A stretch of 56,785 nucleotides of DNA. It comes from a virus. Where the stretch lies: IMG/VR virus record IMGVR_UViG_3300045988_148145. One strand, written 5' to 3'. The position numbers and the translations under genes were made by a program. The notes beneath the pieces were generated by a model that saw only the letters and a list, made by a program, of their open reading frames with translations, was not told the DNA's origin and searched no databases. Each line of letters begins with the position of its first letter. Position 1 is the stretch's first letter. Below, in pieces: positions 203 to 56,572 of this stretch.

Positions 203-234
203 TTTGCTTTAAACATGATAATTATCTATATTTG
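203..234 (+). promoter_or_regulatory. Bacteroidota-type promoter: -33 TTTG (203-206) and -7 TATATTTG (227-234)
   Basis: Exact match to the TAnnTTTG -7 consensus with TTTG 20 nt upstream. It is the only plausible promoter for the head gene block, because the neighbouring integrase is divergent. Confidence 0.5.
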
Positions 235-246
235 TCATACAATCAG

Positions 247-264
247 GCCTGTGAAGTTGCAGGC
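247..264 (+). promoter_or_regulatory. Conserved 5' stem-loop, copy 1 (GCCTGT-GAAGTT-GCAGGC)
   Basis: A 5-bp stem plus a T-G closing pair, with loop GAAGTT. It shares the core TGTGAWGTTRCA with copies at 11308-11327 and 14002-14019. Confidence 0.55.
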
Positions 265-295
265 AACCTAGTGTTAAAGAACGGAATTACAAACA

Positions 296-345
296 AGGAC
301 GAGGGCCTGATAGTAAACATGCTATTAGGCTTTCGTCCTTTTTTT
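296..345 (+). terminator. Strong intrinsic terminator in the leader, 11 nt upstream of the first head gene
   Basis: A nearly continuous hairpin of about 18 bp (296-313 paired with 322-339) is followed by a T run at 340-345. Confidence 0.7.
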
Positions 346-356
346 ATTGCCTAAAA

Positions 357-962
357 ATGAAAGAAAAAATTCTATCTGCCTTGAAAACTAAATACAAGAA
401 TTTAGGGTTCGGGGACAAAGCCTTCGATGGCGTGGCCGAATATCTATCCGGGAACGTTACCGAAGAATCTCAAATCGAAACTGCAATCGCAGGGGTCGAA
501 ATCTTATTAAAATCGTTCCAGGGCGACATTGACAAGGTTAGAACCGAGAAATCGGAACTACAAAAAAAATATGACGAACTGGAAAAATCTCAAGGGGGCA
601 CTCCTAAAAAAGAAGAAGAACCCGATCAAATGCCAGCATGGTTTAAAACTTACAAGGAAGAACAAGACAAAATAATAGAACGTCTTCAAGATGAAAATGT
701 CAAGTTCAGACAAGAAAAAGATTTAGCCAATCGGCAATCATTTATTTCCGGAGAACTTAAAAGGTTGGGTATAGACGAAAGAGATTTGGAATTTTTGAGT
801 ATTCCCGATTCTTTAGACAACGATGGGATTTCCAAACATCTCACGAATTATAAACAACGTCAAATTGACAAGGGACTACCGGGAGTAAATCCATTCCCGC
901 AATCCAAGGGAGAAATTTCCAAAGAAGAAGCGGATAGCATTGTTGAACACATGAGTTTTTAA
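357..962 (+). CDS. putative scaffolding protein
   Basis: 201-aa ORF with a charged coiled-coil-like centre (SELQKKYDELEKS...). It lies directly upstream of the small head protein and capsid genes. Confidence 0.45.
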   Translation: MKEKILSALKTKYKNLGFGDKAFDGVAEYLSGNVTEESQIETAIAGVEILLKSFQGDIDKVRTEKSELQKKYDELEKSQGGTPKKEEEPDQMPAWFKTYKEEQDKIIERLQDENVKFRQEKDLANRQSFISGELKRLGIDERDLEFLSIPDSLDNDGISKHLTNYKQRQIDKGLPGVNPFPQSKGEISKEEADSIVEHMSF

Positions 963-9867: not shown

Positions 9868-11284
9868 AAAGATAACATATCACCCGCTCTTATCTGCAGA
9901 GATTGAAATGTTCAAACGTGGCATGTTTGATTTTGTCACGATTTGTGCCGGGTTAAAGCATTTAAAACAAGAACAAGCCTTACAAGTGTTGACTGGGAAC
10001 GATGTCGTTGAATTGCTTTACGGGGGTGCCGCAGGAGGAGCGAAATCATGGACTGGATGTACTTGGCTTGCTTTTTCATGCTTGGCTTATCCCGGCACAA
10101 AATGGTTTATAGGGCGTAAAGAATTAAAAAGCCTAAGAGAAACCACGTTGATTACTTTTTACAAGGTATGTTCGATGTATAATATTAAAAGAGGTGTTGA
10201 CTTTACTTATAACGGGCAAGATCATTTTATCGAATTCAAAAACGGATCTAGGATTGACTTGCTAGACCTTCGGTATTTACCTTCAGACCCCATGTATGAA
10301 AGATATGGTTCATCTGAGTATACAGGGGGATGGATCGAGGAAGGTGGAGAGATTGATTTCGGTGCTTACGATACTCTTAAAACCCGTGTCGGGCGGCACT
10401 TGAATTCTCAATATGGACTTTTACGTAAAATATTCATTTCTTGTAACCCGAAAAAAAACTGGATGTACACAACATTTTACAAGCCAGCAAAAAACGATGA
10501 ACTTCCCTCATACATGAGATATTTGTCATGTCTAGTTGATGACAACCCGTTTATGGATAAAGGTTACGTGGAGGCTCTTGAATCTACAAAAGACAAGGTA
10601 AAATACGAGAGGCTGAGGAAGGGAAATTGGGATTACGATGATAACCCAAACATGCTTTGCTCCTACGATGCAATCACAGAAATATTCAACAACGCTATAG
10701 CCAAGAAAACTGGAAAAAGATACTTGACCGCCGATATAGCAAGGTATGGGTCAGATAAAGCTATTATACTTGTATGGGATGGCTACGTGATTATTGATTA
10801 CATGGTGTTTGATATTAGTAGTACAACACAAATCCAATCAGCAATCATGCATCTTAGACAAAAATACCAAATCCCAACGTACAGGTGTATTGCTGACGAG
10901 GATGGTGTTGGCGGTGGTGTAGTTGATTCTTGTCGTATACTCGGTTTCCATAATGGCGGAAAACCTTTTGATGGGGAGAATTACCAGAATCTACAATCTC
11001 AATGCGTGTACAAGTTAGCGGAACACGTCAATGGTAATGACGTGGGTTTTGAGGCTGAAATAAGCGAAGATGATAAAGAATGCATAATCATCGAGCTTGA
11101 ACAAATGCAATCATGGGATGTTGACTCTGACGGGAAATTGAAAATTAAACCTAAAGAAGAAATAAAGAAAGATATTGGTCGCTCTCCGGACTGGAGAGAT
11201 GTTATAATGATGAGAGCGTATTTTGATTATAAAGACATCACCCCATTACCTAATAATGCGGATGAATACTTTGATTTGTTGTAA
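9860..11284 (+). CDS. terL: terminase large subunit
   Basis: 474 aa with Walker A-like GGAAGGAKSW, positioned after terS. Confidence 0.85.
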   Translation: MAEKITYHPLLSAEIEMFKRGMFDFVTICAGLKHLKQEQALQVLTGNDVVELLYGGAAGGAKSWTGCTWLAFSCLAYPGTKWFIGRKELKSLRETTLITFYKVCSMYNIKRGVDFTYNGQDHFIEFKNGSRIDLLDLRYLPSDPMYERYGSSEYTGGWIEEGGEIDFGAYDTLKTRVGRHLNSQYGLLRKIFISCNPKKNWMYTTFYKPAKNDELPSYMRYLSCLVDDNPFMDKGYVEALESTKDKVKYERLRKGNWDYDDNPNMLCSYDAITEIFNNAIAKKTGKRYLTADIARYGSDKAIILVWDGYVIIDYMVFDISSTTQIQSAIMHLRQKYQIPTYRCIADEDGVGGGVVDSCRILGFHNGGKPFDGENYQNLQSQCVYKLAEHVNGNDVGFEAEISEDDKECIIIELEQMQSWDVDSDGKLKIKPKEEIKKDIGRSPDWRDVIMMRAYFDYKDITPLPNNADEYFDLL

Positions 11285-11327
11285 ATTGTAGATATTTTTG
11301 TGAAACAAGCTTGTGATGTTGCAAGCT
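11270..11327 (+). promoter_or_regulatory. Promoter (-33 TTTG 11270-11273, -7 TATTTTTG 11293-11300) plus conserved stem-loop copy 2 (11308-11327)
   Basis: The hairpin is AGCTTGT-GATGTT-GCAAGCT. It starts 8 nt after the -7 box and ends 19 nt before the portal ATG. Confidence 0.5.
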
Positions 11328-11346
11328 ACTAAAATCAACGGCAGGC

Positions 11347-12834
11347 ATGATAATAATAGACTTTTTCAATTCTTCAGTAAATTGGTTCCTTAATACTTTT
11401 GGTGCAAAAAGAGATTTGTTAGAACTTATCAAGGATAAGGATATAAACAAGGCCATACAATCTTTCCAATGTAGGGATTCAGATGTTGAAATCGCAATAT
11501 CTGAATTAGATCCAGCATTGCACAAGGTTAATCGAAGGCCAAACAAGAAAAGAATCGGCAAACCAGACAAGATAACGGCAAAACTTGCAATCCCCTGTCA
11601 GCGACACATAAACGAGGTCGAGTTAGCGTTTTTATATGGCACGATGCCAACTTGGAATCAAACATCAATAAATACGGATAGGGCGTTTGAGGCTTTCGGC
11701 AATTTTTTAAAAAACACTCGCTGGGGAACGACACAGCGAGAATTTAAAAGAACTGCTGGTGGTGAAACTGAATCCGCAAAATTGTATTACGTGTACATGG
11801 ACACAGAAACACAAAAGAAAAAAGTTGGGGTAAAAGTCCTTGCCAAGACGAAAGGAGACGAAATTAGACCTTTATTTGATCAATATGGAAATATGCTTGC
11901 ATTCGGGCATGGGTATTACTTGAAAGAAGGTAATACAATCGTTCGGCATTTTGATATTTACTGCCCAGATTACGTTTTCAGATGCACTCAAAAGAATATT
12001 GGCTGGGATGTTATAACAGAGAAAAACGATATTGGCAAAATACCAGTTATATATGTGCAACAACCCAAAGCATGGGATGGTGTGCAAGCATTAATAGACA
12101 GGCTTGAAGAGTTACGATCACGTGTATCTGATGTTAATGACTACGTGGCGGATCCTATCTTGAAAATGTCAACAGATATTATGATTGCTCGAAATGAAGC
12201 AAAAATAAATAATAGCATTAAAAGTGGCCTTCCTGATCCAGACACGAGTGGAGGAGGTAAAACTGTCGGATTGCCAACAAAAGATAGTATCATGGAGTAT
12301 CTCACGGTAGATACTGCCGTTGACCTAAAAAAGAATGAAATTGAAGATTTAGACAAGGTAATCAAGGTAATGTCAATGACACCAGACCTTACTTTTGAAG
12401 CTTTAATATCCGCAGGGGCACCTACTGGAAGGGCGTTAAGGAGAGCTATGGCATTAGGCTACATGAAACGAGCTAAAAATATAGAAATATACTCGATAGC
12501 TCAAGACAGGGAAGCAAATTTGATTAAAGCTATAATCGGCAATGTTCTTGACATTTCTCTAAAATCAGAGATGGAAAAATTAATAGTCCATTCGGAATTT
12601 GGAGAACCATTCCAAGATGACATTAGCGAGAAAATAAGCGATATTATCAAACTGAGAGATGCAGGTCTCCTAAGTCAAGAAACGGCTATGTCTTTGATCG
12701 ATTACATTAAAGATGTTCAATCTGAAATAGATAAAATAAAGACAGAGCTAGAGGAAAAACAACAAATGTTATCCGAGCAAATGGGTGCAGGATCTTTATT
12801 CGGGCAATTCAGAAATAACACAGAAGAAGAATGA
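11347..12834 (+). CDS. portal protein
   Basis: 495 aa, positioned between terL and the MuF-like head morphogenesis gene. Confidence 0.75.
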   Translation: MIIIDFFNSSVNWFLNTFGAKRDLLELIKDKDINKAIQSFQCRDSDVEIAISELDPALHKVNRRPNKKRIGKPDKITAKLAIPCQRHINEVELAFLYGTMPTWNQTSINTDRAFEAFGNFLKNTRWGTTQREFKRTAGGETESAKLYYVYMDTETQKKKVGVKVLAKTKGDEIRPLFDQYGNMLAFGHGYYLKEGNTIVRHFDIYCPDYVFRCTQKNIGWDVITEKNDIGKIPVIYVQQPKAWDGVQALIDRLEELRSRVSDVNDYVADPILKMSTDIMIARNEAKINNSIKSGLPDPDTSGGGKTVGLPTKDSIMEYLTVDTAVDLKKNEIEDLDKVIKVMSMTPDLTFEALISAGAPTGRALRRAMALGYMKRAKNIEIYSIAQDREANLIKAIIGNVLDISLKSEMEKLIVHSEFGEPFQDDISEKISDIIKLRDAGLLSQETAMSLIDYIKDVQSEIDKIKTELEEKQQMLSEQMGAGSLFGQFRNNTEEE

Positions 12835-13934
12835 ACCTAGATAAACTCACCATCGAGGAACTAAAAAAAATGCTAGATCAGTTGCAGATAGAGACATCAA
12901 CACGAATTGATGACGCCTTCAATAAATTCGTGGATGATATTTCTAACATGGGGCTTATCAAGTCTTACCTGTCTTCTAAGGAGCAAAAATTTTTAAGCGA
13001 GATGAAAAGGCTATCAAATGCTATAAGCAATCACATTGATAGCCTTGTTGATGATATACACGTGATAAATACTACATCATCGAATATCTCATGGAAAATT
13101 GGAGAAAAAATTGCAGAGAAAGAGATTAAATCCATCATTCCTGAAGGTCTATTTGAAAAATTACGGGCAAACGGCATATTTGAACATAGGAAGAAATCCC
13201 TCGATAGTTTTACCATGAGTAAAAAGGATTTCAGAATATCTTCACGTGTATGGAAAGAGGGAATAAAAGGACAAATCGAAGATTCCTTACAACTTGCATT
13301 TGTAGATGGAAAGAGCGCAAACGAGTTATCACGTGATATTCGCAAGTGCTTGCAAGAACCTGACCGACTTTATAGGAGAGTCCGTGACGCAGAAACTGGA
13401 GAGTTAAAATTAAGCAAAGCGGCAAAAGAGTACCATCCGGGGCAGGGCGTTTACAGGTCAAGTTATAAAAACGCAATGAGATTATGCCGTAACGAGATAA
13501 ACAAATCATATAGACGTGCAGAATGGGAAAGCTATCAATATAATCCCGCCATTGTTGGATTCAGGATTAGGTTATCCAATAATCACACGCTAAACGGGAA
13601 ACCATTCGTTGATATATGTGATTATGCACAAGGCGTGTATCCAAAGGATTTCAAGTGGCATGGTTGGCACGTTCAATGTCGTTGCGTCATGGAACCTGTA
13701 TTCGCTCCAAGGATTGACTTGGAAAAGATGGAAGACGCTATTCTGGCAGGAGGTAACGCAGAAGATATTCAGGTGAAACAAGTATCATCTATCCCGAAGA
13801 AATTCATTGATTGGTCGCAAAAGCACAAAAAACAAATATCTGGTTGGGACTCAAAACCAGATTACATTCTTGATAATAAAGCTTACGCTGAAAAATATTT
13901 CACGTACAAGGATGTATTTAAGAAAGATTCATGA
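12831..13934 (+). CDS. minor head / head morphogenesis protein (SPP1 gp7 / Mu F-like)
   Basis: 367 aa. The C-terminal NHTLNGKPF...HVQCRCV resembles the MuF domain, and it follows the portal gene. Confidence 0.7.
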   Translation: MNLDKLTIEELKKMLDQLQIETSTRIDDAFNKFVDDISNMGLIKSYLSSKEQKFLSEMKRLSNAISNHIDSLVDDIHVINTTSSNISWKIGEKIAEKEIKSIIPEGLFEKLRANGIFEHRKKSLDSFTMSKKDFRISSRVWKEGIKGQIEDSLQLAFVDGKSANELSRDIRKCLQEPDRLYRRVRDAETGELKLSKAAKEYHPGQGVYRSSYKNAMRLCRNEINKSYRRAEWESYQYNPAIVGFRIRLSNNHTLNGKPFVDICDYAQGVYPKDFKWHGWHVQCRCVMEPVFAPRIDLEKMEDAILAGGNAEDIQVKQVSSIPKKFIDWSQKHKKQISGWDSKPDYILDNKAYAEKYFTYKDVFKKDS

Positions 13935-13966
13935 TTTTATACTGTATAAAATTTTGATATTATTCT

Positions 13967-14019
13967 TTTGAAAGAAACTATAATTTTATATCTTTGTTGA
14001 AGCATGTGATGTTACATGC
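13967..14019 (+). promoter_or_regulatory. Promoter (-33 TTTG 13967-13970, -7 TATCTTTG 13989-13996) plus conserved stem-loop copy 3 (14002-14019)
   Basis: The hairpin is GCATGT-GATGTT-ACATGC. Its loop contains the in-frame ATG at 14009. Confidence 0.5.
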
Positions 14020-14869
14020 CACCCAAATATCTACGGACGGAATGGCTGAATATTATCTTAATAATAAACCTCTTTCTGATTTTGGTATCGTACCATCTCG
14101 TAGCAACAAGCATATAGCTTTGTCGGGATGCTTTGACCTTCCTAAAAGAATTGGTGACACTTATTTTGACTGGCCTCGTGAAAACGGTGTAGATCCTTAT
14201 GTAGACGAAAGCGATATTCAATTTGACTCAAGAAGCATTAGATTCACCGGGTACATTATCGGGAATCTTGAATTAAATGTTCGGTCTTTACAAAATTACG
14301 TTTTAGCACTACCTGAATTATCCATGCTATCTTGTAAATGGGGGTCATGGAATGTTAAAGTCAACAAGAGCATAGACATCACCCCTATTGACAAAAATAA
14401 CGCAAGAATAAGCATTTCATTCGTTGAACCAACTCCAGATTTATCCGGAACATTACCACCTATATCAACGATCAAGGATATTGATGATTATTCTTGGAAA
14501 TCTTTAGGTTTATACATTGAAAAAATTAATGGGAGTTTTAATATTAAACCTCTCAAATCCCTTGACGTGACTCAAAACCCGGATAGAACAATTCGATCAA
14601 CAGGAGGAGAAGACAAGGGCAAGGTTACTATTTCGGCTCACGTTGTAGCAACTTCTTTTGAAGATTTCAAATCAAGAATAAAATCGCTATACAGATTATT
14701 CGGAAGTACTGGACTAAGAACAATAAATTATCGAGGCAGATCTATTTATTGTTTTGCTATTAATGGATTTACCATCACGAATGTTATCATGAAAGATATT
14801 ATCGTGGCAAAATTCACGTGCGAGCTAATTGAAACAAGCAAAATGATCAATGCAAATGAAGACATATAG
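14009..14869 (+). CDS. putative distal tail protein (Dit-like)
   Basis: ORF directly upstream of the Tal-like giant gene. The start is uncertain: ATG 14009 or 14042, while the track uses TTG 13994. Confidence 0.45.
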   Translation: MLHATQISTDGMAEYYLNNKPLSDFGIVPSRSNKHIALSGCFDLPKRIGDTYFDWPRENGVDPYVDESDIQFDSRSIRFTGYIIGNLELNVRSLQNYVLALPELSMLSCKWGSWNVKVNKSIDITPIDKNNARISISFVEPTPDLSGTLPPISTIKDIDDYSWKSLGLYIEKINGSFNIKPLKSLDVTQNPDRTIRSTGGEDKGKVTISAHVVATSFEDFKSRIKSLYRLFGSTGLRTINYRGRSIYCFAINGFTITNVIMKDIIVAKFTCELIETSKMINANEDI

Positions 14870-25722: not shown

Positions 25723-26025
25723 ATGGAAAAAATTTTTCAAGAGGTGGTAAAAATAGTCTCCGAGGGAACCGGGATAAACGGTAACGATTTAATACATAGC
25801 AAGAAAGAGGAATGCGTTGACGCTCGCTCTATCTTGATAAATTTACTATCAGAACTCGGTTTTACCGATACTTTAATATCAAGGTACACTTGTTTAACCC
25901 GTCAAGGTGTCAACAAGCTCAAGAACACGTTTCACGACAGGAAGAGGAATTCTTTCATCTTGTCAACGAATTATCAACAAATAAGAAACGAACTAGCAAC
26001 CAATAATTTAATTAGCAACGTGTGA
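25723..26025 (+). CDS. small putative DNA-binding protein (DnaA C-terminal-like HTH)
   Basis: 100 aa. The segment ECVDARSILINLLSELGFTDTLISRYTCLTRQGV resembles the DnaA domain IV-like regulators common in Bacteroidota phages. Confidence 0.35.
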   Translation: MEKIFQEVVKIVSEGTGINGNDLIHSKKEECVDARSILINLLSELGFTDTLISRYTCLTRQGVNKLKNTFHDRKRNSFILSTNYQQIRNELATNNLISNV

Positions 26026-26077: not shown

Positions 26078-26839
26078 ATGGAAATTATCGAGAAGAAAGT
26101 CTACGAGGAAGGCGGGGAAAACCGTCGTTCAACTCGTGAAAGGGCGAATGCCGGGCTCACCTTGGGAATCATCGGTACGGTTTTAGGTGCCGCCGCCTTG
26201 TGGGGACGCAACAACGGCGGGATCGGTTCTATCCTTGGGGGAGGGACATCCTTGGCCGGGGGTGGAAGCGTTCCAAGTAACGTGAACATTAACTCTTACG
26301 GTGGCGGGGCTACCGGTTGTGTTGCACCCACGCCTTTTCAAGCTTGGGAAAAGGGATGCGAGGACGCTCTCGCTCTCACGAACGAGATGTGGCGATTAAA
26401 AGTTGGATCCATGCAAGCTATCTCCGATTCGAGAGAGGTTGACGTGGCGGAGAAATTCGGGCTGTACAAAACGATGGTTGACGCCGATTTTGGGTTGTAC
26501 AAGTCAAACCGGGATAACATTGACGCCGTTAACAACCGGATTAACGCCGAGTTGTTTAGCTTGTACAAGTACACCCGTGACAAGGACGATGAAACTCGCA
26601 AGGAGCTGTGTGACCTTAAAGCACAAGTTGCCATCAGCAACGCCGTTAGACCGTATCAAGACAAGTTGATCCAGTGCGAGATCGAGAAAGCGTTCACCGC
26701 CGGCATCAATTACACCGATCGCAAAACGTGCAAGATGGTAGAAGGTGTTGTCGTGGTTCCCACCGAGCCGACCATCACCGGTATCGGGAGCTACTGTTGT
26801 TTTCGCAACAACACGACGGGAGGCAACACCCCAGCTTAA
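26078..26839 (+). CDS. hypothetical membrane protein with a Gly-rich segment
   Basis: 253 aa, with TM segment LTLGIIGTVLGAAALW followed by GGIGSILGGGTSLAGGGS. It lies in the G+C-rich block. Confidence 0.55.
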   Translation: MEIIEKKVYEEGGENRRSTRERANAGLTLGIIGTVLGAAALWGRNNGGIGSILGGGTSLAGGGSVPSNVNINSYGGGATGCVAPTPFQAWEKGCEDALALTNEMWRLKVGSMQAISDSREVDVAEKFGLYKTMVDADFGLYKSNRDNIDAVNNRINAELFSLYKYTRDKDDETRKELCDLKAQVAISNAVRPYQDKLIQCEIEKAFTAGINYTDRKTCKMVEGVVVVPTEPTITGIGSYCCFRNNTTGGNTPA

Positions 26840-26895
26840 ACAATCGAGCAAGAGAAGAACTCGCAAGCGTTCAAGTAAAACGAAATTATCAAATC

Positions 26896-27420
26896 ATGCA
26901 AGGAAATAACTTTTTCTTCACGGGAGGGGATCCGTTACTGGGTCAATCTCCCGGCTACATGGAATCTCAATTCCAAGAACTAGAGAGGATGCAGGCGGCC
27001 ATCGAGCAAAAGAAGAAGGCGATGCTTCAAGCCAAGGAGCAGATGTCGAGACAAGAGCAACACCCGAGTCAAAGTCAAACCCCTGTTTGGGACGAGATCG
27101 AGAGTATCGTGTCCGGGATGACGGACAAGGAATTCGAGATCGTGACGGGTAACGAGGAGTTCGTCGAGAGCCAGAACGCCATCATGTCTATCTTGCAAGC
27201 GAAATACATGCAAATGATGCGTCCAGTCGTGGAGGGTTCCCCAGAGGGGAAAGACGCCCTTGACAAGCATCTAACGCTTGTAAAAAGGTTGCGCAAGTCG
27301 GCAGCCTCGGAGGTTGACAAGGAAATAAGTGATTTTCAAGAGTACAAGGAAAAGTATCCGGACATACCGTATTCGGAGTACCAGAAGATGAAACGTTCAA
27401 GCAAGGGAGGTAAAAAATGA
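26896..27420 (+). CDS. hypothetical coiled-coil protein
   Basis: 174 aa from ATG 26896. The track ORF starts upstream at 26674 and overlaps the previous gene. Confidence 0.5.
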   Translation: MQGNNFFFTGGDPLLGQSPGYMESQFQELERMQAAIEQKKKAMLQAKEQMSRQEQHPSQSQTPVWDEIESIVSGMTDKEFEIVTGNEEFVESQNAIMSILQAKYMQMMRPVVEGSPEGKDALDKHLTLVKRLRKSAASEVDKEISDFQEYKEKYPDIPYSEYQKMKRSSKGGKK

Positions 27421-29022: not shown

Positions 29023-29165
29023 CGCTAATTTATTGTATTTAATGGACTTGCTGGATAACGAGTGTATCGCCGGGGTCGCTGCTATAATCATAGCGGAGAT
29101 GCTCGCTATCGTTTGAAAGCGGTTAAACAGTTACTTGAAGTGTGGCACGATTGGCGGCGTGTTAG

Positions 29166-29190
29166 AGGGGCGGGATGCCCCTTTATTTTT
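29166..29190 (+). terminator. Intrinsic terminator ending the plus-strand late block
   Basis: Hairpin AGGGGC-GGGAT-GCCCCT followed by TTTATTTTT. Confidence 0.65.
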
Positions 29191-29203
29191 GGTATATAAA
29201 AAA

Positions 29204-29306: not shown

Positions 29307-29711
29307 TTACTTACTAGCATTTGTAAAATTAACTGGGGGCAAGATTATTGCTCCTATTCCAGATTTTAATGTAATATTCGTAATGTGCTCTCTTATAAAC
29401 GGGGAAATAATAGCAGCCCCATTCACTTTTCCAAATTCATTAAAATCACGAATGATAGATTCTCCGATAGATTCAAAAATACCAATCATTTTCACTTTTA
29501 TATTCACTTGCTCAACCTCATGATATTTCTGTACAAGTATTACTTCTTCGGCCACGATAATAGAACTTCCATTTACCGAAACTTCGGTATTTATTTCTAC
29601 GTCATTTTTAGCATCCTCGCCAAATTGTACATTGTTTATTCGTGAAAAATGACTCTCCACCAGTAATAGATTAGTAATCTTGAATCCTGATTCCAGCTTG
29701 TTATTTCCCAT
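29307..29711 (-). CDS. SecB-like chaperone
   Basis: 134 aa. GIFESIG and ISPFIREHITNITLKSGIGAIILPPVNF align by eye with E. coli SecB GIFSIAG and [29 protein letters not shown]. Confidence 0.6.
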   Translation of the reverse strand: MGNNKLESGFKITNLLLVESHFSRINNVQFGEDAKNDVEINTEVSVNGSSIIVAEEVILVQKYHEVEQVNIKVKMIGIFESIGESIIRDFNEFGKVNGAAIISPFIREHITNITLKSGIGAIILPPVNFTNASK

Positions 29712-29713
29712 GA

Positions 29714-30175
29714 TTATGCCGCATTTAAGTATGAATAATTTGTGTATTCAACGGGAATATTAGTTTCCTCGATTGTGTTTAATTCTGGTTGTGATTGATT
29801 ATACGTAAATAAAAGATTGTGTTTTGTTAATTTACGAGAAATCTGTACACTTGACATATCAAATACAATTGATTTCCTCTCCACGGAAAAAGGAGTATAA
29901 TACAATCCTTCTTTCTCGAATACCGGACTATCTATTTTCACTAAAGAATCATCAGAAATAAAACAAATATTTTCAGAAGGATATTTACTAATAAATTCAT
30001 CAAATGTTTCACTCTCCCACTCTATATAATCATCATTTTGTTGATAAATTTCTATAGGTAACACCTCAATCATATGAGATCGAGACTTTTCATCGTACTC
30101 GTAACGAACTTTCGAACTTAAAAATACACTAATGAAAGATTCTAATTTCCCAATAATATAATCTACTGCATTCAT
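29714..30175 (-). CDS. hypothetical acidic protein (candidate antitoxin/partner); no family recognised
   Basis: 153-aa ORF, separated by 2-3 nt from both neighbours. No nucleotidyltransferase GS...DxD motif is present. Confidence 0.55.
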   Translation of the reverse strand: MNAVDYIIGKLESFISVFLSSKVRYEYDEKSRSHMIEVLPIEIYQQNDDYIEWESETFDEFISKYPSENICFISDDSLVKIDSPVFEKEGLYYTPFSVERKSIVFDMSSVQISRKLTKHNLLFTYNQSQPELNTIEETNIPVEYTNYSYLNAA

Positions 30176-30178
30176 GAT

Positions 30179-30574
30179 CTAATATTTTTTTAGAATTGGA
30201 AGAATATCTTTTGATAAAGATAGCGAATTTGAACTTTTCGAAAAATCAAACATGCTATCATCATAATCGGCGGTTACTCTAAGTTTTTTTAACTGCACGA
30301 TCTTCGTGTTAAATTCTCTAAATTCTTGATTCGAATTATTTTTAATATACTTTCCAATTTCGTTAATTAAAAATTCATGAGTTCCAACTTTATTAATACT
30401 ACATCTCGATTCTAGTTCTGTCTGTGTTTTACGCATACTATATATCCAAATATGCTTTAATAACAGGAAACAGCTATAATAAGCACTATGACCAACAGCA
30501 GGATAATAATTACTTTCATGTGATAGTTCTACAGAAGCAATCAACATTTCTGATTTATTTTGAAAGTTGCTCAT
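30179..30574 (-). CDS. HEPN-like domain protein (candidate toxin)
   Basis: 131 aa from ATG 30574 (the track uses TTG 30628). The layout SNYYPAVGHSAYYSCFLLLKH...GTHEF...LRVTADYDD resembles HEPN four-helix domains. Confidence 0.5.
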   Translation of the reverse strand: MSNFQNKSEMLIASVELSHESNYYPAVGHSAYYSCFLLLKHIWIYSMRKTQTELESRCSINKVGTHEFLINEIGKYIKNNSNQEFREFNTKIVQLKKLRVTADYDDSMFDFSKSSNSLSLSKDILPILKKY

Positions 30575-30639
30575 AAATATTAATATTGCAATCCTTTGTT
30601 GTACCTGATGCCGCAAATTTAAATCCAATATTTAATTAT

Positions 30640-31125
30640 TACAAGTATTTCTTTGGGTTTTACGAAAATATTTGTTATTGGTTGCATTAGACAGCAACAA
30701 AAAGCGGCCCCCGTTTCCAGAAGCCGCCGTGGTGCCACTCTAACTTGCATCACTCGCCACACGGCACATCTAGCATAGTACGTTTAATTGTTACATGGTG
30801 GGTATTTCTCTAAAACCAGAGCGGGATCCAATGGTATTTCGGCGAGACACCAAATATCGAACCTCTCGCTAATCACGAGTGGCGATATGTCGATTATAAC
30901 TTGTTTTGTTTCGTTATCCATAAAAAAGTGGCTTAACGTTCGCTGTCAGCAAGGAATCGCCAGAGACCTAACAATCAAACTACTAGCCAAGCCACCGTAT
31001 AGGAAGCCCAACTAGCTCATTTGATTGTTCAAATTTGAAACTGGCGATTTCTGCTGAACAATGAACTAGTTCGTAATATCTTCTTGGCACACCTTCACGT
31101 GCCGTGGTGCAAAGATATAAAATAT
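30640..31125. ncRNA. candidate structured RNA or cis-element; ORF-free and G+C-elevated
   Basis: No ORF of 60 aa or more on the minus strand. A nested long hairpin spans 30954-31050, with two 10-bp stems. Further hairpins lie at 30704-30727, 30842-30869 and 31086-31103. The 10-nt direct repeat GCCGTGGTGC occurs at 30726 and 31101. Confidence 0.35.
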
Positions 31126-35251: not shown

Positions 35252-36202
35252 TTACTTGAATATCTTTTTTAAACCGCTGTTTACAGCTTCCATTTTTGTT
35301 TGATCCGATGGATGCACGTAGATGTCCATCGTTGTGCTTATATCGGAATGCCCTAGTAGCATTGAAACTGTTTTCACGTCAACCTTATTCTCTATAAGCG
35401 TGGTAGCGAAAGTATGACGGAGCCCGTGGAACTTGATACAATGATCCAGTTTCACCCTTTTTAATATAAAATCACGGTAATAATTTCTGAACGTGCGTGG
35501 TTCCGTGAACTTGTTAGAGCAAGTACACACGTAGTAATCAGGGTTGCATACAGCGGAAAATTTCTTGATTATTGGCAGCACGTTTTTCATGATAGGTATG
35601 TACCTGTCAGACGATGATGTTTTTGGAGGTCCTATTTCGATTCTTGATTTTTTATCATGATCGCTGTCGTTATCCATCATGTATATTCTTCCCAAAGTTT
35701 TACTAACGTGTATAGTCTTGTTGCCAATATCTATGTCACTCCATTGTAACGCGCATATTTCACCTATTCTCATCCCGGTGCAAATTGTCAACAGTATCCC
35801 GAGGTTGAGCGGTGAAGGGTTTTCAAGAACGTAATCCACAATAGCACGATATTCTGACGGCGTGTATCTTTCTATTTTTGTCGCTAAAATCTTGTTCTTG
35901 GTTGGCCATGTCATTTTCCAGCTCGTATCAGGAACTATTATATCAAGTTCATCCGATGCAAACTTGATAAGCATCTTTAGAACTATGAGTATATCCGAAC
36001 AATATTTTTTTGATTTCCCGGAATCCATCAATTTATAGATAAAAGGGATTATCACCTTCTTGTTTAACGTTTCCACGTCCAAGTTCCCAAGTACTGGGTC
36101 TATGATGTTAACGTATAGCATTTTGTAACAGCTTAACGTGGATATTTTCACTTGACGTTTTTTAAACGGCATCCAAGTATCGTACACTTCTCTAAGTTTC
36201 AT
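35252..36202 (-). CDS. second tyrosine recombinase (XerC/D / phage integrase family)
   Basis: 316 aa. It contains [12 protein letters not shown], and [12 protein letters not shown]...[16 protein letters not shown], which gives the R, HxxR, H and Y catalytic pattern. Confidence 0.8.
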
Positions 36203-36774
36203 TTTTGAACTATTTTCATGTTAGCACTAGCTTTAATTATTTCCGAGAACGCCAGGGTGTCATCCCTCTGGTTCAGTAATATGTATTTTTGTTTTATCTC
36301 GTTTTCAAGCACGTCCCCGTGATACACGTACCCCATGATTCCACGAATCGACAGGTTCAGTAACAGGATCGGGATAGATCTCGATGACAACTCCCAGCAC
36401 GTTACCATGTGTTGAGACGGGAAATGTTCCCACGGGATCAACTTGTTGCAACGCTGCCACCAGTCTGCTATTATCATAGAACCGTTCCCGGCGGTTGGCT
36501 CGTGAAGGTGCCCATGTTGTCCGGTTAATTCCGAGCATAGAATTCCTAGAGAATTGGGCGTGAAATCTTGTTTTTTCTGTTTTCTCTCGGATAGCTCGCT
36601 CTCGTATAATTCCTGGAACCAATCGTGAGACATATCGTAATTGTTCAATCTAATTAATTCCTTGTATACATCGTTTCGGTCGTTTAAATCGCCCGCTATA
36701 ATTTTTGTAACGGCATCAGGAAGATCCCTTAGATCGTCTATGCCGAAAAGTTTAAACACGTCTTCTTTTTTCAT
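36199..36774 (-). CDS. N6-adenine methyltransferase-like protein lacking the catalytic NPPF/DPPY motif
   Basis: 191 aa. [15 protein letters not shown]...[11 protein letters not shown]...[20 protein letters not shown]...HGDVL matches the HsdM-type N-terminal half. The ORF ends before motif IV and overlaps the recombinase start by 4 nt. Confidence 0.5.
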
Positions 36775-37660
36775 AATATTCCAGGTCTTTTTTTAATATT
36801 TTCTTGATCAAGGTTAATGATCTTGATATTCTAGCATCCACGTTTCCTTTACTAATCGATAATATTTTAGCAATTTCCGTGTTCTTGTATCCCTTGTATC
36901 TCATCTCTAGTATCTCCCTGTCTCTCTTCACGGGTAACAAGTCGTAAAGGGGGAACTCGAAATCCTTGTTGAAAAAAAACGGGTCGTAATCAAAACACGA
37001 TAACGAGCATCGCTTTTGAATGAAATCTTTTACCCTTTGTTTGCAATACCAGACCCACGTGGCAAGAACGTCTTCACAATCCATGTTGCATGTCACGTGA
37101 ATAAAAGCATCTTGAACAACGTCTTCTGAATCTTCCTTTGATAAGTTAAACGTTCTTGACAAGTATAACCGTACCCGTTCAAAATGTGATTTATACAATC
37201 CAGCGTACATGCCCATTTTGCTTGATGATATGACTTGGGAGGCCTCGAAAGATAATACTAAATTGTCTAACGAGTAATCAAGCTTGTTGCCGTTTTTGTA
37301 ACACGGCCTGACATCAAGCCACTTGCCAATCACGAACGAGTTGTACAGGCATTGCGCCACCGTCACTTGAATTTCACGGTGTTTCCCGGTTGATAGCTTG
37401 ACGAATTTCTCGGACGAAGGACGCCTCACGTGTTCCTTTTGAATCACGAATCCTTTCCCGCTAATCGTTTTAGCAAAGAATACTTTCCCGCTGATCGTTA
37501 TATAATAACTCTTGTCACTTGAATCCATGGGATAAGGAATTTGGGCCGTTTTTTCATTTGTTATCTTTTCGATAAAAGATTGAGCTTCATCCACGTGATT
37601 TATAAAATATCCTTTTTTTGTGTCCATGGTCTCTAGCCAGCTTTCGCTGGTATTCTTCAC
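36752..37660 (-). CDS. sigma-70-family-like factor fused to an N-terminal degenerate HNH/NUMOD4-like domain
   Basis: The C terminus carries DVVQDAFIHV (region 2-like) and EILEMRYKGYKNTEIAKILSISKGNVDARISRS (region 4 HTH). The N terminus carries YYITISGKVF...CYKNGNKLDYSLDNL. Confidence 0.5.
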   Translation of the reverse strand: MKNTSESWLETMDTKKGYFINHVDEAQSFIEKITNEKTAQIPYPMDSSDKSYYITISGKVFFAKTISGKGFVIQKEHVRRPSSEKFVKLSTGKHREIQVTVAQCLYNSFVIGKWLDVRPCYKNGNKLDYSLDNLVLSFEASQVISSSKMGMYAGLYKSHFERVRLYLSRTFNLSKEDSEDVVQDAFIHVTCNMDCEDVLATWVWYCKQRVKDFIQKRCSLSCFDYDPFFFNKDFEFPLYDLLPVKRDREILEMRYKGYKNTEIAKILSISKGNVDARISRSLTLIKKILKKDLEYYEKRRRV

Positions 37661-44366: not shown

Positions 44367-44648
44367 TTATTTACTTTCCAACGCGTCCATTTGCATTTTC
44401 ACCACGCACGCCTCGTGCCATGCCGTGAAACCGTCAAATTTTTTACTGAATTCAGCATATCTATTAAAATTGTTCGTGCTAAGGATGAAGTAATAAGCTT
44501 TGTTCTTGCACTCTTTCTCCTTGCTTAATTCTTCGTGCAACTTGGAAAGTTTGTGTTGCAACTTTTGGATTTCCCTCTTTCGTTGGGATTCACGTGTTCG
44601 GGTGTTACTATACTTCGCACCTTTACAAATCTCGCTTGTTCTTGGCAT
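44367..44648 (-). CDS. hypothetical basic coiled-coil protein
   Basis: 93-aa ORF. Confidence 0.5.
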   Translation of the reverse strand: MPRTSEICKGAKYSNTRTRESQRKREIQKLQHKLSKLHEELSKEKECKNKAYYFILSTNNFNRYAEFSKKFDGFTAWHEACVVKMQMDALESK

Positions 44649-50136: not shown

Positions 50137-51156
50137 TTATCTATCAACTTCCGTGAATACCCCGTTGACTAACTTGTAATAAGTGTCTTCTTTTATCTCG
50201 ACCCCGTCAACCCTTTTTGTTACCACGTTTATCGGGATCCAATCTCCATTATCGTCTCTTCCCCATTCAGCAAGTGTTATCCAAGAGCCAATTTTTGCCT
50301 TCGCTATTGAATTATTCCCGGCACACATTACCACGCTATTTTTACCCGATGACCCGATCTTTGCGCCATTACCCGATGACCCGATCTTTGCGCCATAACC
50401 CGATGACCCGATCTTTGCGCCATTACCCGATGACCCGATCTGTGCGTCATCACCCGATGACCCGATCTTTGCGCCATCACCCGATGACCCGATCTTTGCG
50501 TAATTACCCGATGACCCGATCTGTGCGTCATAACCCGATGACCCGATCTTTGCGTCATCACCCGATGACCCGATCTTTGCGCCATTACCCGATGACCCGA
50601 TCTGTGCGTAATTACCCGATGACCCGATCTGTGCGTAATTACCCGATGACCCGATCTGTGCGCCATCACCCGATGACCCGATCTTTGCGTCATAACCCGA
50701 TGACCCGATCTTTGCGTCATCACCCGATGACCCGATCTGTGCGTCATAACCCGATGACCCGATCTTTGCGTCATCACCCGATGACCCGATCTGTGCGTAA
50801 TTACCCGATGATTTTTCTAACTCTTTTGTATCATTTTTCGAGAATGTAGTTTGTTCCTTCAACCATTCTATCCCCATCTTGAATAATCCAACAAATCCGA
50901 TTTCAGCATTTATTTTTATCCGTTTGCCACAGATTTTAGAATCATTCTCTTTTTTGTCATTTGATACCTCGTCAAGTTCTACCTCGCAGTACTTGCCTTC
51001 CACGTCGTTGTAATAGTTAAGAACGTCAAGGGGGTTGGTGCAGGCGTGAAAACATTTCTCGCATAACACTGCCTCCTCTTCCTCGTATTCCTTTCCTTCC
51101 TCGAACTGGAAACCTCTGCACGTGAAATCTTTATTAAATCCTTTGTACGCTTTCAT
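50137..51156 (-). CDS. repeat protein: Cys-containing N-terminal domain plus 17 x nonapeptide IGSSGxxAx
   Basis: 339 aa from ATG 51156 (MKAYKGFNKDFTCRGFQFEEGKEY...). The central repeats probably form a beta-helix. Confidence 0.65.
   Translation of the reverse strand: MKAYKGFNKDFTCRGFQFEEGKEYEEEEAVLCEKCFHACTNPLDVLNYYNDVEGKYCEVELDEVSNDKKENDSKICGKRIKINAEIGFVGLFKMGIEWLKEQTTFSKNDTKELEKSSGNYAQIGSSGDDAKIGSSGYDAQIGSSGDDAKIGSSGYDAKIGSSGDGAQIGSSGNYAQIGSSGNYAQIGSSGNGAKIGSSGDDAKIGSSGYDAQIGSSGNYAKIGSSGDGAKIGSSGDDAQIGSSGNGAKIGSSGYGAKIGSSGNGAKIGSSGKNSVVMCAGNNSIAKAKIGSWITLAEWGRDDNGDWIPINVVTKRVDGVEIKEDTYYKLVNGVFTEVDR
50344..50811. repeat. 17 tandem 27-bp units plus a partial unit
   Basis: The unit is ACCCGATGACCCGATCT[T/G]TGCG[CC/TC/TA]AT[T/A/C]. 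In my hand alignment, 23 of 27 positions are invariant in all 17 units. Confidence 0.95.
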
Positions 51157-51237
51157 GTTTATGTTATTTATTGTTCGTTTCCAAAATTTCGCCCTTTCGA
51201 GTATCACTACTTTGTCCGGGCTAATTATCTACTCACT

Positions 51238-51480: not shown

Positions 51481-51662
51481 GACTTCCTAGATTTACTCCT
51501 CGTCCTGAAATGCTCCTCGATAAACAACAATGTCAAGAACCAGCAAAAGCCAGAGACATAAAACTGGTGTGTCGCAGGCTCGCCAAGAGTAGTGGTGCCG
51601 AACAAGCCCCCGAAAAGGCTGACTAGCGACAGGGTGAAGAATAGGGTGATGTGTGTTTTCAT
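51477..51662 (-). CDS. small membrane protein
   Basis: 61 aa with two hydrophobic segments. Confidence 0.45.
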   Translation of the reverse strand: MKTHITLFFTLSLVSLFGGLFGTTTLGEPATHQFYVSGFCWFLTLLFIEEHFRTRSKSRKS

Positions 51663-51871
51663 ATAACTTTACACTTTTGAATAAACTTATCGATAGATGA
51701 CTTTTCGTACCATATCTTGTTCTCTCCAAAACGGAAAAAACTAATCAACGCCTTATCTCTCAATTCACGGATAAAATCCTCGGAACAATCAAGATATTTC
51801 ATGACTTCCGACGTGGAAAGAAAGACTTTTTCTACAGGAACTATCATACCTTGTTTGCGCTGGCGTGGCAT
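51659..51871 (-). CDS. excisionase-type HTH protein (Xis/MerR-like)
   Basis: Contains LSTSEVMKYLDCSEDFIRELRDKALISFFRFGENKIWYEKSSIDKFI. Confidence 0.55.
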   Translation of the reverse strand: MPRQRKQGMIVPVEKVFLSTSEVMKYLDCSEDFIRELRDKALISFFRFGENKIWYEKSSIDKFIQKCKVI

Positions 51872-52096: not shown

Positions 52097-52382
52097 TATA
52101 TTTGTGTTTAACTTTTAAAATTCGTTTTCGAAGTGTATCAACCTCGATTACGATGCAAATATACAAACATTTCGGTAAACACCCTTTATTTATACAAAAA
52201 TGTTTGTACAAAACAATTAATTTAGAATTATTTTAAATACAACTAATTGATAGTATGATAAAACCAATACATAAAGATCTAATAATAGAGGCAATCATCG
52301 CTGCAAATTCCAGCTTTGTCGAACTAAAAATACTCTCTAATATAGATTAATAATACATATATACACACAAACATTTCAGTAA
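52097..52382. promoter_or_regulatory. Genetic switch region: two -7 boxes and three copies of ACAAACATTT
   Basis: A plus-strand TATATTTG lies at 52097-52104 and a minus-strand TATATTTG at 52156-52163. The repeats lie at 52163-52178 (forward), 52198-52207 (reverse) and 52367-52382 (forward). Confidence 0.5.
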
Positions 52383-52383
52383 C

Positions 52384-53102: not shown

Positions 53103-53202
53103 TTTTAACGTGCGTGCGTTTTTTCTTCTTGTCATGATATAAACTTATTCAATTATATACTATGTTTGAGAATATTAAATTATAAACATAAACGTTTGAA
53201 TT

Positions 53203-53523
53203 ATGAACAATAACACTGAAATTTTTATCTTAATTATGGTGGCTTTACTTCACCTTATTGTATTAATTGTATTTTTTACAATGGCTGGGAATGTTGCAAA
53301 AATAAAAAACAGTCTATCCATGAATGCAAAAAAATACATTGAAATGGGAGACATGGAAGAATACGCAGGAAATAAATCGAAAGCTAAAGAATACTATCTT
53401 AAAGCAAAATATTGCATGGATGCATTGAAAGATACATCATTCCTTAATGCTGACAACAAGCCTTATCCTGGTATGTCAAAGACAAATTTAGATGACAAAA
53501 TAAACCATTTGAACAATCAATAA
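53203..53523 (+). CDS. membrane-anchored hypothetical protein
   Basis: 106 aa with an N-terminal TM segment IFILIMVALLHLIVLIVFFTM. Confidence 0.5.
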   Translation: MNNNTEIFILIMVALLHLIVLIVFFTMAGNVAKIKNSLSMNAKKYIEMGDMEEYAGNKSKAKEYYLKAKYCMDALKDTSFLNADNKPYPGMSKTNLDDKINHLNNQ

Positions 53524-55073: not shown

Positions 55074-55102
55074 AATTCAGCTTTACATATTTGGGGAGGG
55101 GA

Positions 55103-56556: not shown

Positions 56557-56572
56557 ATTTCTCACCAATTTT

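Follow-up and report, generated by a model that had tools for sequence, protein, structure and literature searches.

The lambdoid N/nut and HK022 put RNAs confer terminator resistance on RNA polymerase. The short terminated late transcript of phage lambda is known as the "6S RNA". Among NusG-paralogue systems, a leader RNA hairpin is the proposed recognition target of LoaP (as cited in PMC11685472), and the features that define opsX, an element of ~40 bp, are a pause site, non-template DNA and contacts with the duplex upstream (PMC11685472). The stem-loops of the E. coli ompA leader, B. subtilis aprE and phage SP82 are 5´ stabilisers, which act by structure alone. We analysed a 56.8-kb stretch of viral DNA (IMG/VR record IMGVR_UViG_3300045988_148145; 56,785 nt, the whole of which is referred to as the window), which is part of a Butyricimonas prophage. 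The window carries three copies of a stem-loop that, like nut and put, would be a short cis-acting RNA hairpin just after a promoter, with a sequence-specific loop, and that, like the 5´ stabilisers, would lie at the extreme 5´ end of an mRNA.

Three hairpin copies follow predicted promoters of virion modules

Seven full matches to TTTG-N17-21-TAnnTTTG are present in the window, and those that are intergenic and on the + strand are exactly promoters 1-3 (Table 1). These meet the criteria for Bacteroidota sigma-A type promoters (-33 TTTG / -7 TAnnTTTG, intergenic, facing a gene), an inference from sequence alone, as activity was not measured. Transcription start sites likewise were inferred from the accepted -33/-7 geometry, with no measured 5´ ends, and the label "late" rests on the identity of the downstream genes: the modules headed by copies 1, 2 and 3 are scaffold/capsid, portal and Dit/tail, respectively.

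Table 1. Coordinates of promoters, hairpin copies, leader elements and genes in the window.
Feature	Position	Strand	Remarks
Promoter 1	203-234	+	TTTG 203-206, 20-nt spacer, -7 box TATATTTG 227-234
5´ flank of hairpin 1, ACAAUCAGGCC	239-249	+	putative anti-terminator strand; complementary to 304-312
Hairpin copy 1	247-264	+	GCC UGU [GAAGUU] GCA GGC; covariance model 27.8 bits; -9.7 kcal/mol
Invariant AC of copy 1	266-267	+	+5/+6 after core
Conserved single-stranded box AACGGAAUUAC	280-290	+	copy-1 leader
Intrinsic terminator, copy-1 leader	295-348	+	20-bp stem 295-340 and T-run; precedes first gene (ATG 357)
First gene of head module	357-962	+	scaffold-like, phrog_5824; major head protein next
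Major head protein	1345-2457
TerS	at 9262
TerL	at 9860
Promoter 2	11270-11300	+	TTTG 11270-11273, 19-nt spacer, -7 box TATTTTTG 11293-11300; overlaps TerL gene end
Hairpin copy 2	11308-11329 including AC (hairpin 11308-11327)	+	AGCU UGU [GAUGUU] GCA AGCU; 40.0 bits
Portal	ATG 11347
MuF-like protein	at 12831
Promoter 3	13967-13996	+	TTTG 13967-13970, 18-nt spacer, -7 box TATCTTTG 13989-13996
Hairpin copy 3	14002-14022 including C then AC (hairpin 14002-14019)	+	GCA UGU [GAUGUU] ACA UGC; 39.8 bits
Dit-like gene	ATG 14042
Tail protein	at 14850
Terminator closing late gene block	29163-29192	+	sole other strong + strand terminator in 1-31000

When both strands of the window were searched, the degenerate 12-mer TGTGAWGTTRCA had exactly three matches (0.01 expected from dinucleotide shuffles; 0 of 100 shuffles with three), all intergenic and on the + strand, and each copy starts 6-13 nt past the G of the -7 box. 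A covariance model found only the three copies in the window (next match, 15.9 bits), and no extra degenerate copies are present, the count with two mismatches allowed being at chance. The RNA hairpins of the three copies are predicted to fold with -7.8 to -9.7 kcal/mol (z -1.7 to -2.4), and the antisense strand folds more weakly for copies 1 and 2. Copies 2 and 3 lie 17-25 nt ahead of the start codon, without a terminator.

An earlier note on this DNA had placed three copies at 247-264, 11308-11327 and 14002-14019, each 6-13 nt past the G of a -7 box with TTTG 18-20 nt upstream, at the heads of late modules; all of these claims held, the last through the identities of the genes downstream. 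Its description of an outer stem varying as GCC/GGC, AGCT/AGCT and GCA/TGC held only in part. With the copies in register (ARGC-N-TGTGAWGTT-R-CA-N´-GC-N-AC), the GC..GC of this "outer stem" is identical in all three, and a single pair truly covaries (C-G, U-A, A-U), along with a closing U.G/U-A change. Covariation within the window is weak (~1/64 by chance); the data from outside the window make the case convincing.

The hairpin is conserved as a sense-strand helix in gut Bacteroidales phages

A promoter-plus-core scan of viral contigs matched at least 119 loci, 98 with a bona fide copy. The family consensus is 5´-N3-4 UGU [R-A-W-G-N-U] RCA N´3-4 AC-3´. The hairpin should be at or very near the 5´ end of virion-module transcripts, because its stem begins 4-13 nt past the G of the TAnnTTTG -7 box; here again, start sites are inferred from promoter geometry. 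The genes downstream are scaffold/MCP, TerS, portal, TMP and Dit-like. About 12 outer-stem pair combinations occur across all sets. No sequence leaves any of the three outer pairs unpaired, each of these pairs takes 4-5 types, and the covariation score is 0.633, where shuffles give 0.231 (0/500) and slid controls 0.01-0.11. The invariant AC at +5/+6 tracks pairing perfectly (15/15 vs 0/15; 24 vs 15 in another set), and a C3-G10 variant is rare. On the sense strand the stem has 12 G.U pairs and zero A.C mismatches, and near-identical leaders of Dit-like genes show the steps from GAUG/CAUC through GAUG/CGUC to GACG/CGUC.

Orthologous leaders were retrieved via the neighbouring protein, without the hairpin as a criterion. 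In these leaders, the hairpin is kept by compensatory changes, including a change of the inner pair from G-C to A-U, and RNAalifold detected seven pairs with double changes. Close relatives of copy 2 carry the loop AAUGUU, the outer stem is GUCU/AGGC in the L219 orthologue of copy 2, and L125 has an orthologue of copy 3. With compensatory changes in independent lineages and on one strand, the criterion for a structured cis-regulatory RNA is met. The three sites in the window are one conserved stem-loop that evolves as a sense-strand helix, and the family is spread in gut Bacteroidales siphophages and prophages. No matches to the hairpin were found in 1.39 Mb of other portal-related phage loci or in phage B124-14, and the matches in cellular genomes are Bacteroidales contigs, namely the window's own prophage, one L137-type head leader and one third contig. 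Rfam gave no match at the gathering threshold in the whole window and only chance-level matches at E<=10 in positions 200-360, with no known ligand aptamer there, and no publication describing the element was found in the literature searched. With neither an Rfam family nor a paper, the hairpin family is likely undescribed.

Three inferences of the earlier note are supported by these results: selection on a single-stranded hairpin rather than a double-stranded palindrome, on the strength of data from outside the window; a position at the start of late transcription units, for which start sites and lateness are inferred only; and the lack of any earlier description. A search of related phages, which it had proposed as a check, yielded further copies with compensatory changes.

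One alternative holds that the element is a double-stranded DNA site, either the operator or activator site of a dimeric regulator, spanning +1..+20, or a promoter element recognised by a phage sigma-like protein. A palindrome with conserved TGT..RCA overlapping the expected start is in the classical operator position, and a phage protein resembling sigma factors, with sigma-70 regions r2 and r4, is encoded at 36752-37660 (- strand) of the window. However, the conserved centre is asymmetric, the arm sequence is free to vary while complementarity is kept, and G.T "pairs" are found in the sense orientation only, leaving a DNA site very unlikely. The sigma-factor site, which the earlier note had entertained, is disfavoured since the hairpin follows the -7 box and has changed over evolution in the manner of an RNA helix, and since only 10 homologues of the sigma-like protein, at >=51% identity, were detected among 5.8 billion proteins, whereas the hairpin occurs in many unrelated phages.

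Another alternative is a mobile promoter cassette, in which the likeness among copies reflects recent horizontal spread and the hairpin itself is functionless. Some groups indeed have flanks in common, for example TCTAAATA upstream and CGAAAAGAC downstream in the large Dit/TMP contig group, L172 and L213. Neutral spread, however, predicts neither compensatory double substitutions nor pairing that is retained without exception, nor would it conserve the hairpin in leaders next to proteins that share only 51-59% identity. We regard this explanation too as very improbable.

The copy-1 leader combines the hairpin with a conserved box and an intrinsic terminator

In the head-module type of leader, a conserved single-stranded flank, CUAUCAG, lies 5´ of the stem, and ~90-110 nt that include a terminator separate the hairpin from the start codon. 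Intrinsic terminators between the hairpin and the first gene were found in four lineages (the window with L219, L223, L224 and L227; L091, L137 and L215; L157; and L172b), and their sequences are mutually unrelated. In L219, the leader unit sits within the late cluster, with a MuF-like gene on one side and a scaffold gene on the other. Across orthologues, the copy-1 terminator shows compensatory change at four pairs, and the box core AACGGAAUU does not vary among six orthologous leaders in which the spacer beside it, the hairpin and the stems of the terminator have diverged.

The duplex between the 5´ flank of copy 1 and the terminator arm is calculated at -14.1 kcal/mol (z -3.95 vs shuffled flank). 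The complementarity is retained in five orthologous leaders. Truncated transcripts of six of six orthologous leaders fold into the 5´-flank:terminator-arm helix, with a duplex range of -13.3 to -15.6 kcal/mol (z -3.2 to -5.6), and the unrelated L172b leader has a flank/terminator duplex of -14.3 (z -4.4). The segment with two possible partners, CCUGAUAG, is nearly invariant, and its terminator partner drifts via wobbles. Of the four lineages with a terminator, two (L091/L137 and L157) lack the pairing; a mutually exclusive anti-terminator helix over the terminator 5´ arm is predicted, and that criterion met, for the copy-1 type and L172b only. Since the terminator stem greatly exceeds the anti-terminator helix in stability, any switch would need to be kinetic or factor-driven.

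Copy 1 might instead be the gene of a trans-acting sRNA of ~105 nt, consisting of promoter, 5´ hairpin, the seed AACGGAAUUAC and a Rho-independent terminator, with the hairpin merely a 5´ module put to repeated use, at the head of some mRNAs as well. This is a classical sRNA architecture with a strong terminator, and orthologues keep the linker box unchanged between drifting flanks. However, no target stands out in the window (22 matches to the box or its complement vs 24 expected), the unit is always directly before scaffold/capsid genes that are otherwise without a visible promoter, and the hairpin heads mRNAs directly in most family members. We consider an sRNA gene unlikely.

The hairpin may be a tag for read-through control

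Because terminators follow the hairpin in four lineages, and because the flank of copy 1 and its orthologues can pair with the terminator arm, our best reading is that the hairpin is a recognition tag for read-through (antitermination) control by a common, unidentified factor. The considerations for and against this reading are close to balanced, the function is inferred, and there are no transcript-end, termination-efficiency or binding data. Either a phage protein or the host's own transcription complex could serve as this factor, and the tag would enable elongation or expression of transcripts begun at these promoters. In the ~105 nt copy-1 leader, made up of 5´ flank, hairpin, AC, AACGGAAUU box and strong intrinsic terminator, the flank would pair with the terminator 5´ arm, closing a domain around the hairpin and box and excluding the terminator. 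Whether transcription ended early, with a short terminated RNA, or continued into the scaffold/capsid genes would then depend on whether the hairpin and box were occupied, and copies 2 and 3 would flag their transcripts for this factor as well. Sequence-specific recognition, inferred here without binding data, is favoured by the conserved loop, U3, AC and box. The leader terminators lend indirect support to the boxB/put-like antitermination role suggested in the earlier note; the 5´ stability role it also suggested stays open.

Against read-through, most family members, including copies 2 and 3, are without a leader terminator, and no strong internal + strand terminator was found in the late block for copies 2 and 3 to overcome. 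Pfam identified no N, Q, NusG-like or BglG-like protein among the early ORFs, and the hairpin-bearing loci share no early protein except common antirepressor-type proteins. The window also encodes a 93-aa basic protein (44367-44648, - strand) with an Arg/Lys-rich N-terminus; nothing ties it to the hairpin.

A serious and possible rival is that the hairpin is a 5´-terminal mRNA stabiliser and/or a translation element with no effect on RNA polymerase. It would guard late mRNAs from 5´-end-dependent decay, perhaps with a protective protein, or organise the leader before A-rich, GGA-containing initiation regions. For this rival, the stem starts only 4-6 nt past the -7 box in most members, leaving an overhang of ~0-2 nt; the hairpin is 17-25 nt from the start codon in portal, Dit, TMP and TerS units; its stability is modest yet real (-7.8 to -9.7 kcal/mol); and most members have no terminator to overcome. 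However, a simple stabiliser needs no invariant loop (GAWGNU), U3, fixed-distance AC or AACGGAAUU box, and the head-module type has single-stranded CUAUCAG before the stem and a terminator ahead of a start codon ~90-110 nt off.

Read-through control also admits a bolder form, in which the hairpin, AC and GRACG/AACGGAAUU box are the cis element of a new Bacteroidota-phage read-through system; here, the evidence leaves us leaning towards doubt. If this were true, a put-like RNA alone might reprogram host RNA polymerase, which would explain its near-invariance across unrelated phages, or an unrecognised late regulator of the phage might dock on the hairpin. The head-module leader would be a riboswitch-like ON switch, with 5´-end helix and terminator as alternatives, that gates scaffold/capsid synthesis.

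Comparison with known systems

The hairpin resembles the 5´ stabilisers in position but, unlike them, conserves its loop, closing pairs and 3´ AC in sequence. Like RAT/BglG-SacY and riboswitch leaders, the copy-1 type has a 5´-end helix with a terminator arm that encloses conserved elements and excludes the terminator; unlike in those systems, the same hairpin also is found without any terminator, and Pfam detected no PRD/CAT-domain antiterminator protein. In the NusG-paralogue systems (Bacteroides UpxY/opsX, LoaP, RfaH/ops), similarly, leader elements of Bacteroides operons recruit an elongation factor through a hairpin in the nascent RNA together with nearby sequence, but opsX differs from the phage hairpin in being defined by pause site, non-template DNA and duplex contacts. 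No NGN/KOW (NusG-like) hit was obtained in the window ORFs scanned, which does not exclude a host paralogue.

The lambda PR´-qut-tR´/Q arrangement is like copy 1 and its orthologues in that a host-type promoter is followed ~100 nt on by a strong intrinsic terminator, which polymerase has to pass to reach the virion genes, with a regulatory element within the first ~20 transcribed bases. The downstream-terminator criterion of Q/qut is met at copy 1 and its orthologues, not at copies 2 and 3. Unlike the phage element, which evolves as an RNA helix, Q reads duplex DNA (QBE) and a sigma-dependent pause; the phage, moreover, has three tagged promoters, two without a terminator, and no Q-like Pfam domain was found in early ORFs.

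The lambdoid nut boxB has a 5-nt GNRA-like loop, which is not met by the 6-nt family loop (G/A-A-W-G-N-U), and HK022 put RNA, with two stem-loops in ~70 nt, is not matched by a family core that is a single short hairpin. BoxB also requires boxA, whereas the phage family has a 6-7-bp stem, the 6-nt loop GAWGNU and AC; no boxA (CGCUCUUA-like, [CT]G[CT]TCTT) was found within the three window leaders, and Pfam did not identify an arginine-rich N homologue. Put works without a phage protein, a mode of action that would suit a motif common to unrelated phages.

Promoter-linked hairpins at the heads of the late modules

The Butyricimonas prophage is a complete temperate siphophage genome. Positions 1-46/47 correspond to the 3´ portion of tRNA-Pro genes, and the opposite end holds a tyrosine integrase (55360-56589, minus strand), indicating that the window spans the prophage from att site to att site. 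The Butyricimonas virosa MAG contig DYVS01000149.1 carries the same prophage, including all three hairpins. We found three matches to TGTGAWGTTRCA in the window, against 0.01 expected, and neither a mismatch-tolerant scan nor a covariance model detected additional degenerate copies there; weak model matches at 51640-51681, 52373-52403 and 53196-53222 were rejected as unlike family members. A full TTTG-N18-20-TAnnTTTG promoter precedes each copy and, among seven such matches in the window, the intergenic ones on the plus strand are exactly these three. The modules downstream of copies 1, 2 and 3 are scaffold-like/major-head-protein, portal/MuF and Dit-like/tail/lysis, respectively. The earlier note had placed a hairpin and promoter at the head of each of these modules, and this held exactly when coordinates were re-read, promoters scanned and genes annotated.

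Features of the prophage and of related leaders (L-numbers are phage or prophage loci from outside the window)
Feature	Coordinates	Strand	Detail
Hairpin copy 1	247-264	+	
Hairpin copy 2	11308-11327	+	
Hairpin copy 3	14002-14019	+	
Virion and lysis genes	357 to 29022	+	gene annotation
Early genes	~52081 down to 29307	-	gene annotation
Sigma-70-like protein	36752-37660	-	302 aa; region 4 E = 2.5e-8, region 2 weak
Leader terminator, lineage 1	295-340 (window stem) + T-run		window, L219, L223, L224, L227
Leader terminator, lineage 2			L091, L137, L215
Leader terminator, lineage 3			L157
Leader terminator, lineage 4			L172 second copy (L172b)
Orthologue hairpin			GUG UAU [GAUGAU] GUA CAC vs window GCC UGU [GAAGUU] GCA GGC
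Orthologue hairpin			GUG UAU [GAAGCU] AUA CAC vs window GCC UGU [GAAGUU] GCA GGC
Orthologue hairpin			GCG UAU [GAAGCU] AUA CGC vs window GCC UGU [GAAGUU] GCA GGC

Other features of the prophage were also noted. A 356-aa protein (50137-51207, minus strand) has an N-terminal DUF7666 followed by ~20 tandem repeats of IGSSG(D/N/Y)xA(K/Q). One accessory cassette (54675-55291, minus strand), adjoining the integrase, encodes a HicA toxin and a HicB-like (UPF0150) partner. Another (29307-30628, minus strand), downstream of a minus-strand terminator at 30703-30728, encodes a HEPN-domain match (weak, below the Pfam cutoff), an unknown 153-aa protein and a weakly SecB-like protein. The plus-strand ORFs 26078-26839 and 26674-27420 are both long and overlap by 166 nt in different frames, possibly reflecting a miscalled start or a programmed frameshift.

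Covariation supports selection on a sense-strand helix

The claim that the stems of the three copies covary held only in part and is weaker than had been stated: the outer-stem GC..GC is the same in all three, and in-register alignment gives one covarying pair plus a U.G/U-A change at the closing pair. The search of related phages and metagenomes that had been proposed as a check did reveal compensatory stem changes. An IMG/VR scan with the promoter and core, in which the flanks were left free, matched at least 119 loci, and 98 loci carry a genuine member. Genuine members could be told from chance matches since two independent features, flanking pairing and an AC dinucleotide after the core, co-occurred perfectly: AC was found exactly at +5/+6 in 15/15 unique match types with at least three further flanking pairs and in 0/15 with fewer.

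Across all sets, the outer stems include GAUG/CAUC, GAUG/CGUC, GAUG/UAUC, GACG/CGUC, CCA/UGG, UCA/UGA, GCG/CGC, AGCU/AGCU, GCA/UGC, GCC/GGC, CUA/UAG and AUGG/CCGU. The three outer pairs are intact in all 20 distinct sequences, with 4-5 pair types each, and the covariation score for this set was 0.633, compared to 0.231 for shuffled sequences (0/500) and ≤0.11 for slid controls. That the hairpin is merely a neutral cassette is very unlikely. Members of the 20-sequence set were chosen partly by pairing; we thus give more weight to the pairing-AC link, to a series of Dit-like leaders and to orthologues fetched by protein, which are free of this bias. The Dit-like series comprises leaders before one same gene that are near-identical, except for stepwise U-A, U.G and C-G at one pair.

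For the orthologues, nine genomic contexts of homologues of the scaffold-like protein (357-962; 381 homologues) were retrieved without reference to the hairpin. The whole leader is kept in four (51-59% protein identity), and the orthologue hairpins (Table) reveal that the inner G-C pair covaries with A-U and relax the loop consensus to G-A-W-G-N-U. RNAalifold analysis of six leaders predicted both the hairpin and a terminator, with changes on both sides at seven pairs. L219 has a further canonical hairpin between TerL and portal, with a distinct outer stem (GUCU/AGGC). The element is absent from the other five scaffold-like contexts (45-56% identity) and is therefore an optional module.

Read on the sense strand, the 12 wobble pairs are G.U without exception and no A.C occurs; the antisense hairpins are weaker for copies 1 and 2. 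The element thus is a sense-strand, single-stranded structure; the alternative, that it is a site in DNA, is very unlikely. Its position makes nascent RNA the natural reading, though we infer this from sequence without RNA data. Collectively, the earlier interpretation of a hairpin under selection is supported, on covariation data from outside the window.

A proposed switch-like leader at copy 1

The hairpin starts 4-13 nt downstream of the -7 box, with one exception at 20 nt, and this spacing is the constant feature; its distance to the start codon varies, from 17-25 nt in most members to ~90-110 nt in head-module leaders. This combination argues for a role tied to the transcription start. 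In four lineages the hairpin is followed, ahead of the first gene, by an intrinsic terminator, and the terminator sequences are unrelated (Table). In L219, the hairpin-terminator unit lies well inside the late cluster, with a MuF-like gene on one side and the scaffold gene on the other, and so is not merely an insulator at a prophage edge. That a 20-bp terminator stands immediately before the genes for proteins needed in greatest abundance implies that read-through is either regulated or built in.

In copy-1-type leaders, the 5´ flank (239-249) is complementary to the terminator 5´ arm (304-312). Transcripts cut before the terminator 3´ arm are predicted to fold into this flank:arm helix in 6/6 orthologues (-13.3 to -15.6 kcal/mol, z -3.2 to -5.6 vs shuffled flanks). 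A like duplex is found in the unrelated L172b leader (-14.3, z -4.4); no such complementarity is present in the L091/L137 and L157 leaders. The flank:arm helix closes around the hairpin and a single-stranded box of invariant sequence, AACGGAAUU (280-290). CCUGAUAG, for which two alternative partners are possible, hardly varies, whereas wobble changes accumulate in its partner within the terminator. As inferred from sequence alone, with no RNA measured, the copy-1 leader has the anatomy of a terminator/anti-terminator switch, in which the hairpin-plus-box domain would serve as the sensor.

The broader reading, that the hairpin is a recognition tag for read-through control, within a switch-like leader at copy 1, is the one we favour, at slightly less than even odds, without RNA measurements. 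Against it, a leader terminator is missing from copies 2 and 3 and from most of the family, and no other strong plus-strand terminator is found in the late block until its end at 29163. A 5´ stabilizer remains possible, and for units without a leader terminator a stabilizing or translational role is equally plausible. Copy 1 acting as a small RNA is unlikely; no part of the window shows enrichment for the complement of AACGGAAUUAC.

We also noted a GGA-containing motif (GGACG, GAACG or ACGGA) 8-17 nt after the AC in many loci (for example, L088 4036-4056 and window 14030-14041). It often is just before the start codon but also occurs at a distance from any start codon, in leaders with a terminator, and may serve either as a further recognition box or as a Shine-Dalgarno-like signal. 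The latter would be unusual in Bacteroidota.

Distribution among phages and bacterial genomes

The genes downstream of the hairpin in other phages include scaffold/MCP, TerS, portal, tape-measure and Dit-like genes. Two hairpin promoters are back to back within ~100 bp in L082 (75-206) and in 12 loci like it, driving a tape-measure-like gene one way and a Dit-like gene the opposite way. When run over 1.39 Mb from other portal-related phage loci, the covariance model had no match. Neither a promoter nor a hairpin separates TerL from portal in distant portal relatives (36-42% identity), which yielded no covariation data. Among GenBank phages, the TerL-to-Dit region is matched only by Bacteroides phage Versailles (TerL, 65% nt), and the L088 leader region by three unannotated faecal contigs. 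The element is absent from Versailles (41.3 of 58.1 kb examined) and B. fragilis phage B124-14.

A scan of 185,579 species genomes with the promoter-linked pattern recovered the window's own prophage in Butyricimonas virosa and, in Prevotella sp. KH2C16, a head-module leader of the L137 type. It also matched a copy with intact pairing on a Bacteroidaceae contig and a few probable chance sites. Matches in cyanobacterial and Ureibacillus genomes (L206, L207) were treated as chance. A scan for the C3-G10 variant of the core gave two matches, one of them in L218; the other, which was inspected, resembles an unrelated terminator. No match was found in Rfam, and literature searches, including with literal sequences, returned no description of the hairpin and no late regulator or leader element for temperate Bacteroidales phages. 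To the extent of these searches, the earlier view that no such element has been described held.

Search for a trans-acting partner

Pfam searches of all early ORFs revealed no N, Q, NusG-like or CAT/PRD protein. The sigma-70-like protein (Table) has only ten homologues among 5.8 billion proteins; given this tiny family and the presence of the motif in many unrelated phages, we rejected it as the general partner, and the suggestion that the hairpin is a site for a phage sigma-like factor is disfavoured. The proteins shared among hairpin-bearing loci are limited to structural ones and common KilA-N/KilAC antirepressor-type proteins; these loci do not reach far enough to cover the early regions. 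The genes that precede the hairpins of L172 and L213 include an integrase, a WYL protein and one with a weak HTH match, none of them an obvious regulator. The loop, U3 of the core and the AC are near-invariant across phages of Odoribacteraceae, Prevotellaceae and Bacteroidaceae hosts, which, by analogy with HK022 put and as inference only, would be compatible with a conserved target in the host, RNA polymerase for example.

Several other genes drew our attention. The sigma-70-like protein, which has a 150-aa N-terminal extension of unknown type, is in a three-gene cluster (35252-37660, minus strand) with a 191-aa ORF bearing an EPTAGNG methyltransferase-like motif and a second, XerC-like tyrosine recombinase. 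The sole other intergenic full-consensus promoter in the window (~44847) drives a 93-aa basic protein (44367-44648, minus strand; pI 9.5) with an Arg/Lys-rich N-terminus, NTRTRESQRKREIQK. That it is an RNA-binding regulator is possible but speculative, as nothing ties it to the hairpin. In the late/lysis region, a 100-aa protein (25723-26025, plus strand) that resembles a helix-turn-helix by eye but gives no Pfam hit has 40-42% identical homologues in hairpin-bearing L136 and L180 (large Dit/TMP group).

Implications and comparison with known leader elements

Temperate Bacteroidales phages are among the most abundant of the human gut, and to our knowledge little is established about the timing of their virion genes. 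The hairpin provides a sequence handle for late transcription units in >100 metagenomic phages and a concrete cis element with which to search for a trans factor, and could be useful as a compact leader part in Bacteroides expression tools. Were the read-through model true, this would be the first antitermination-type late switch in the phylum known to us; if only a stabilizer, the hairpin is still a new conserved RNA motif, of lesser interest. The element does not meet the defining features of the nut, put, qut, ops or RAT families but, by analogy, may still work like one of them.
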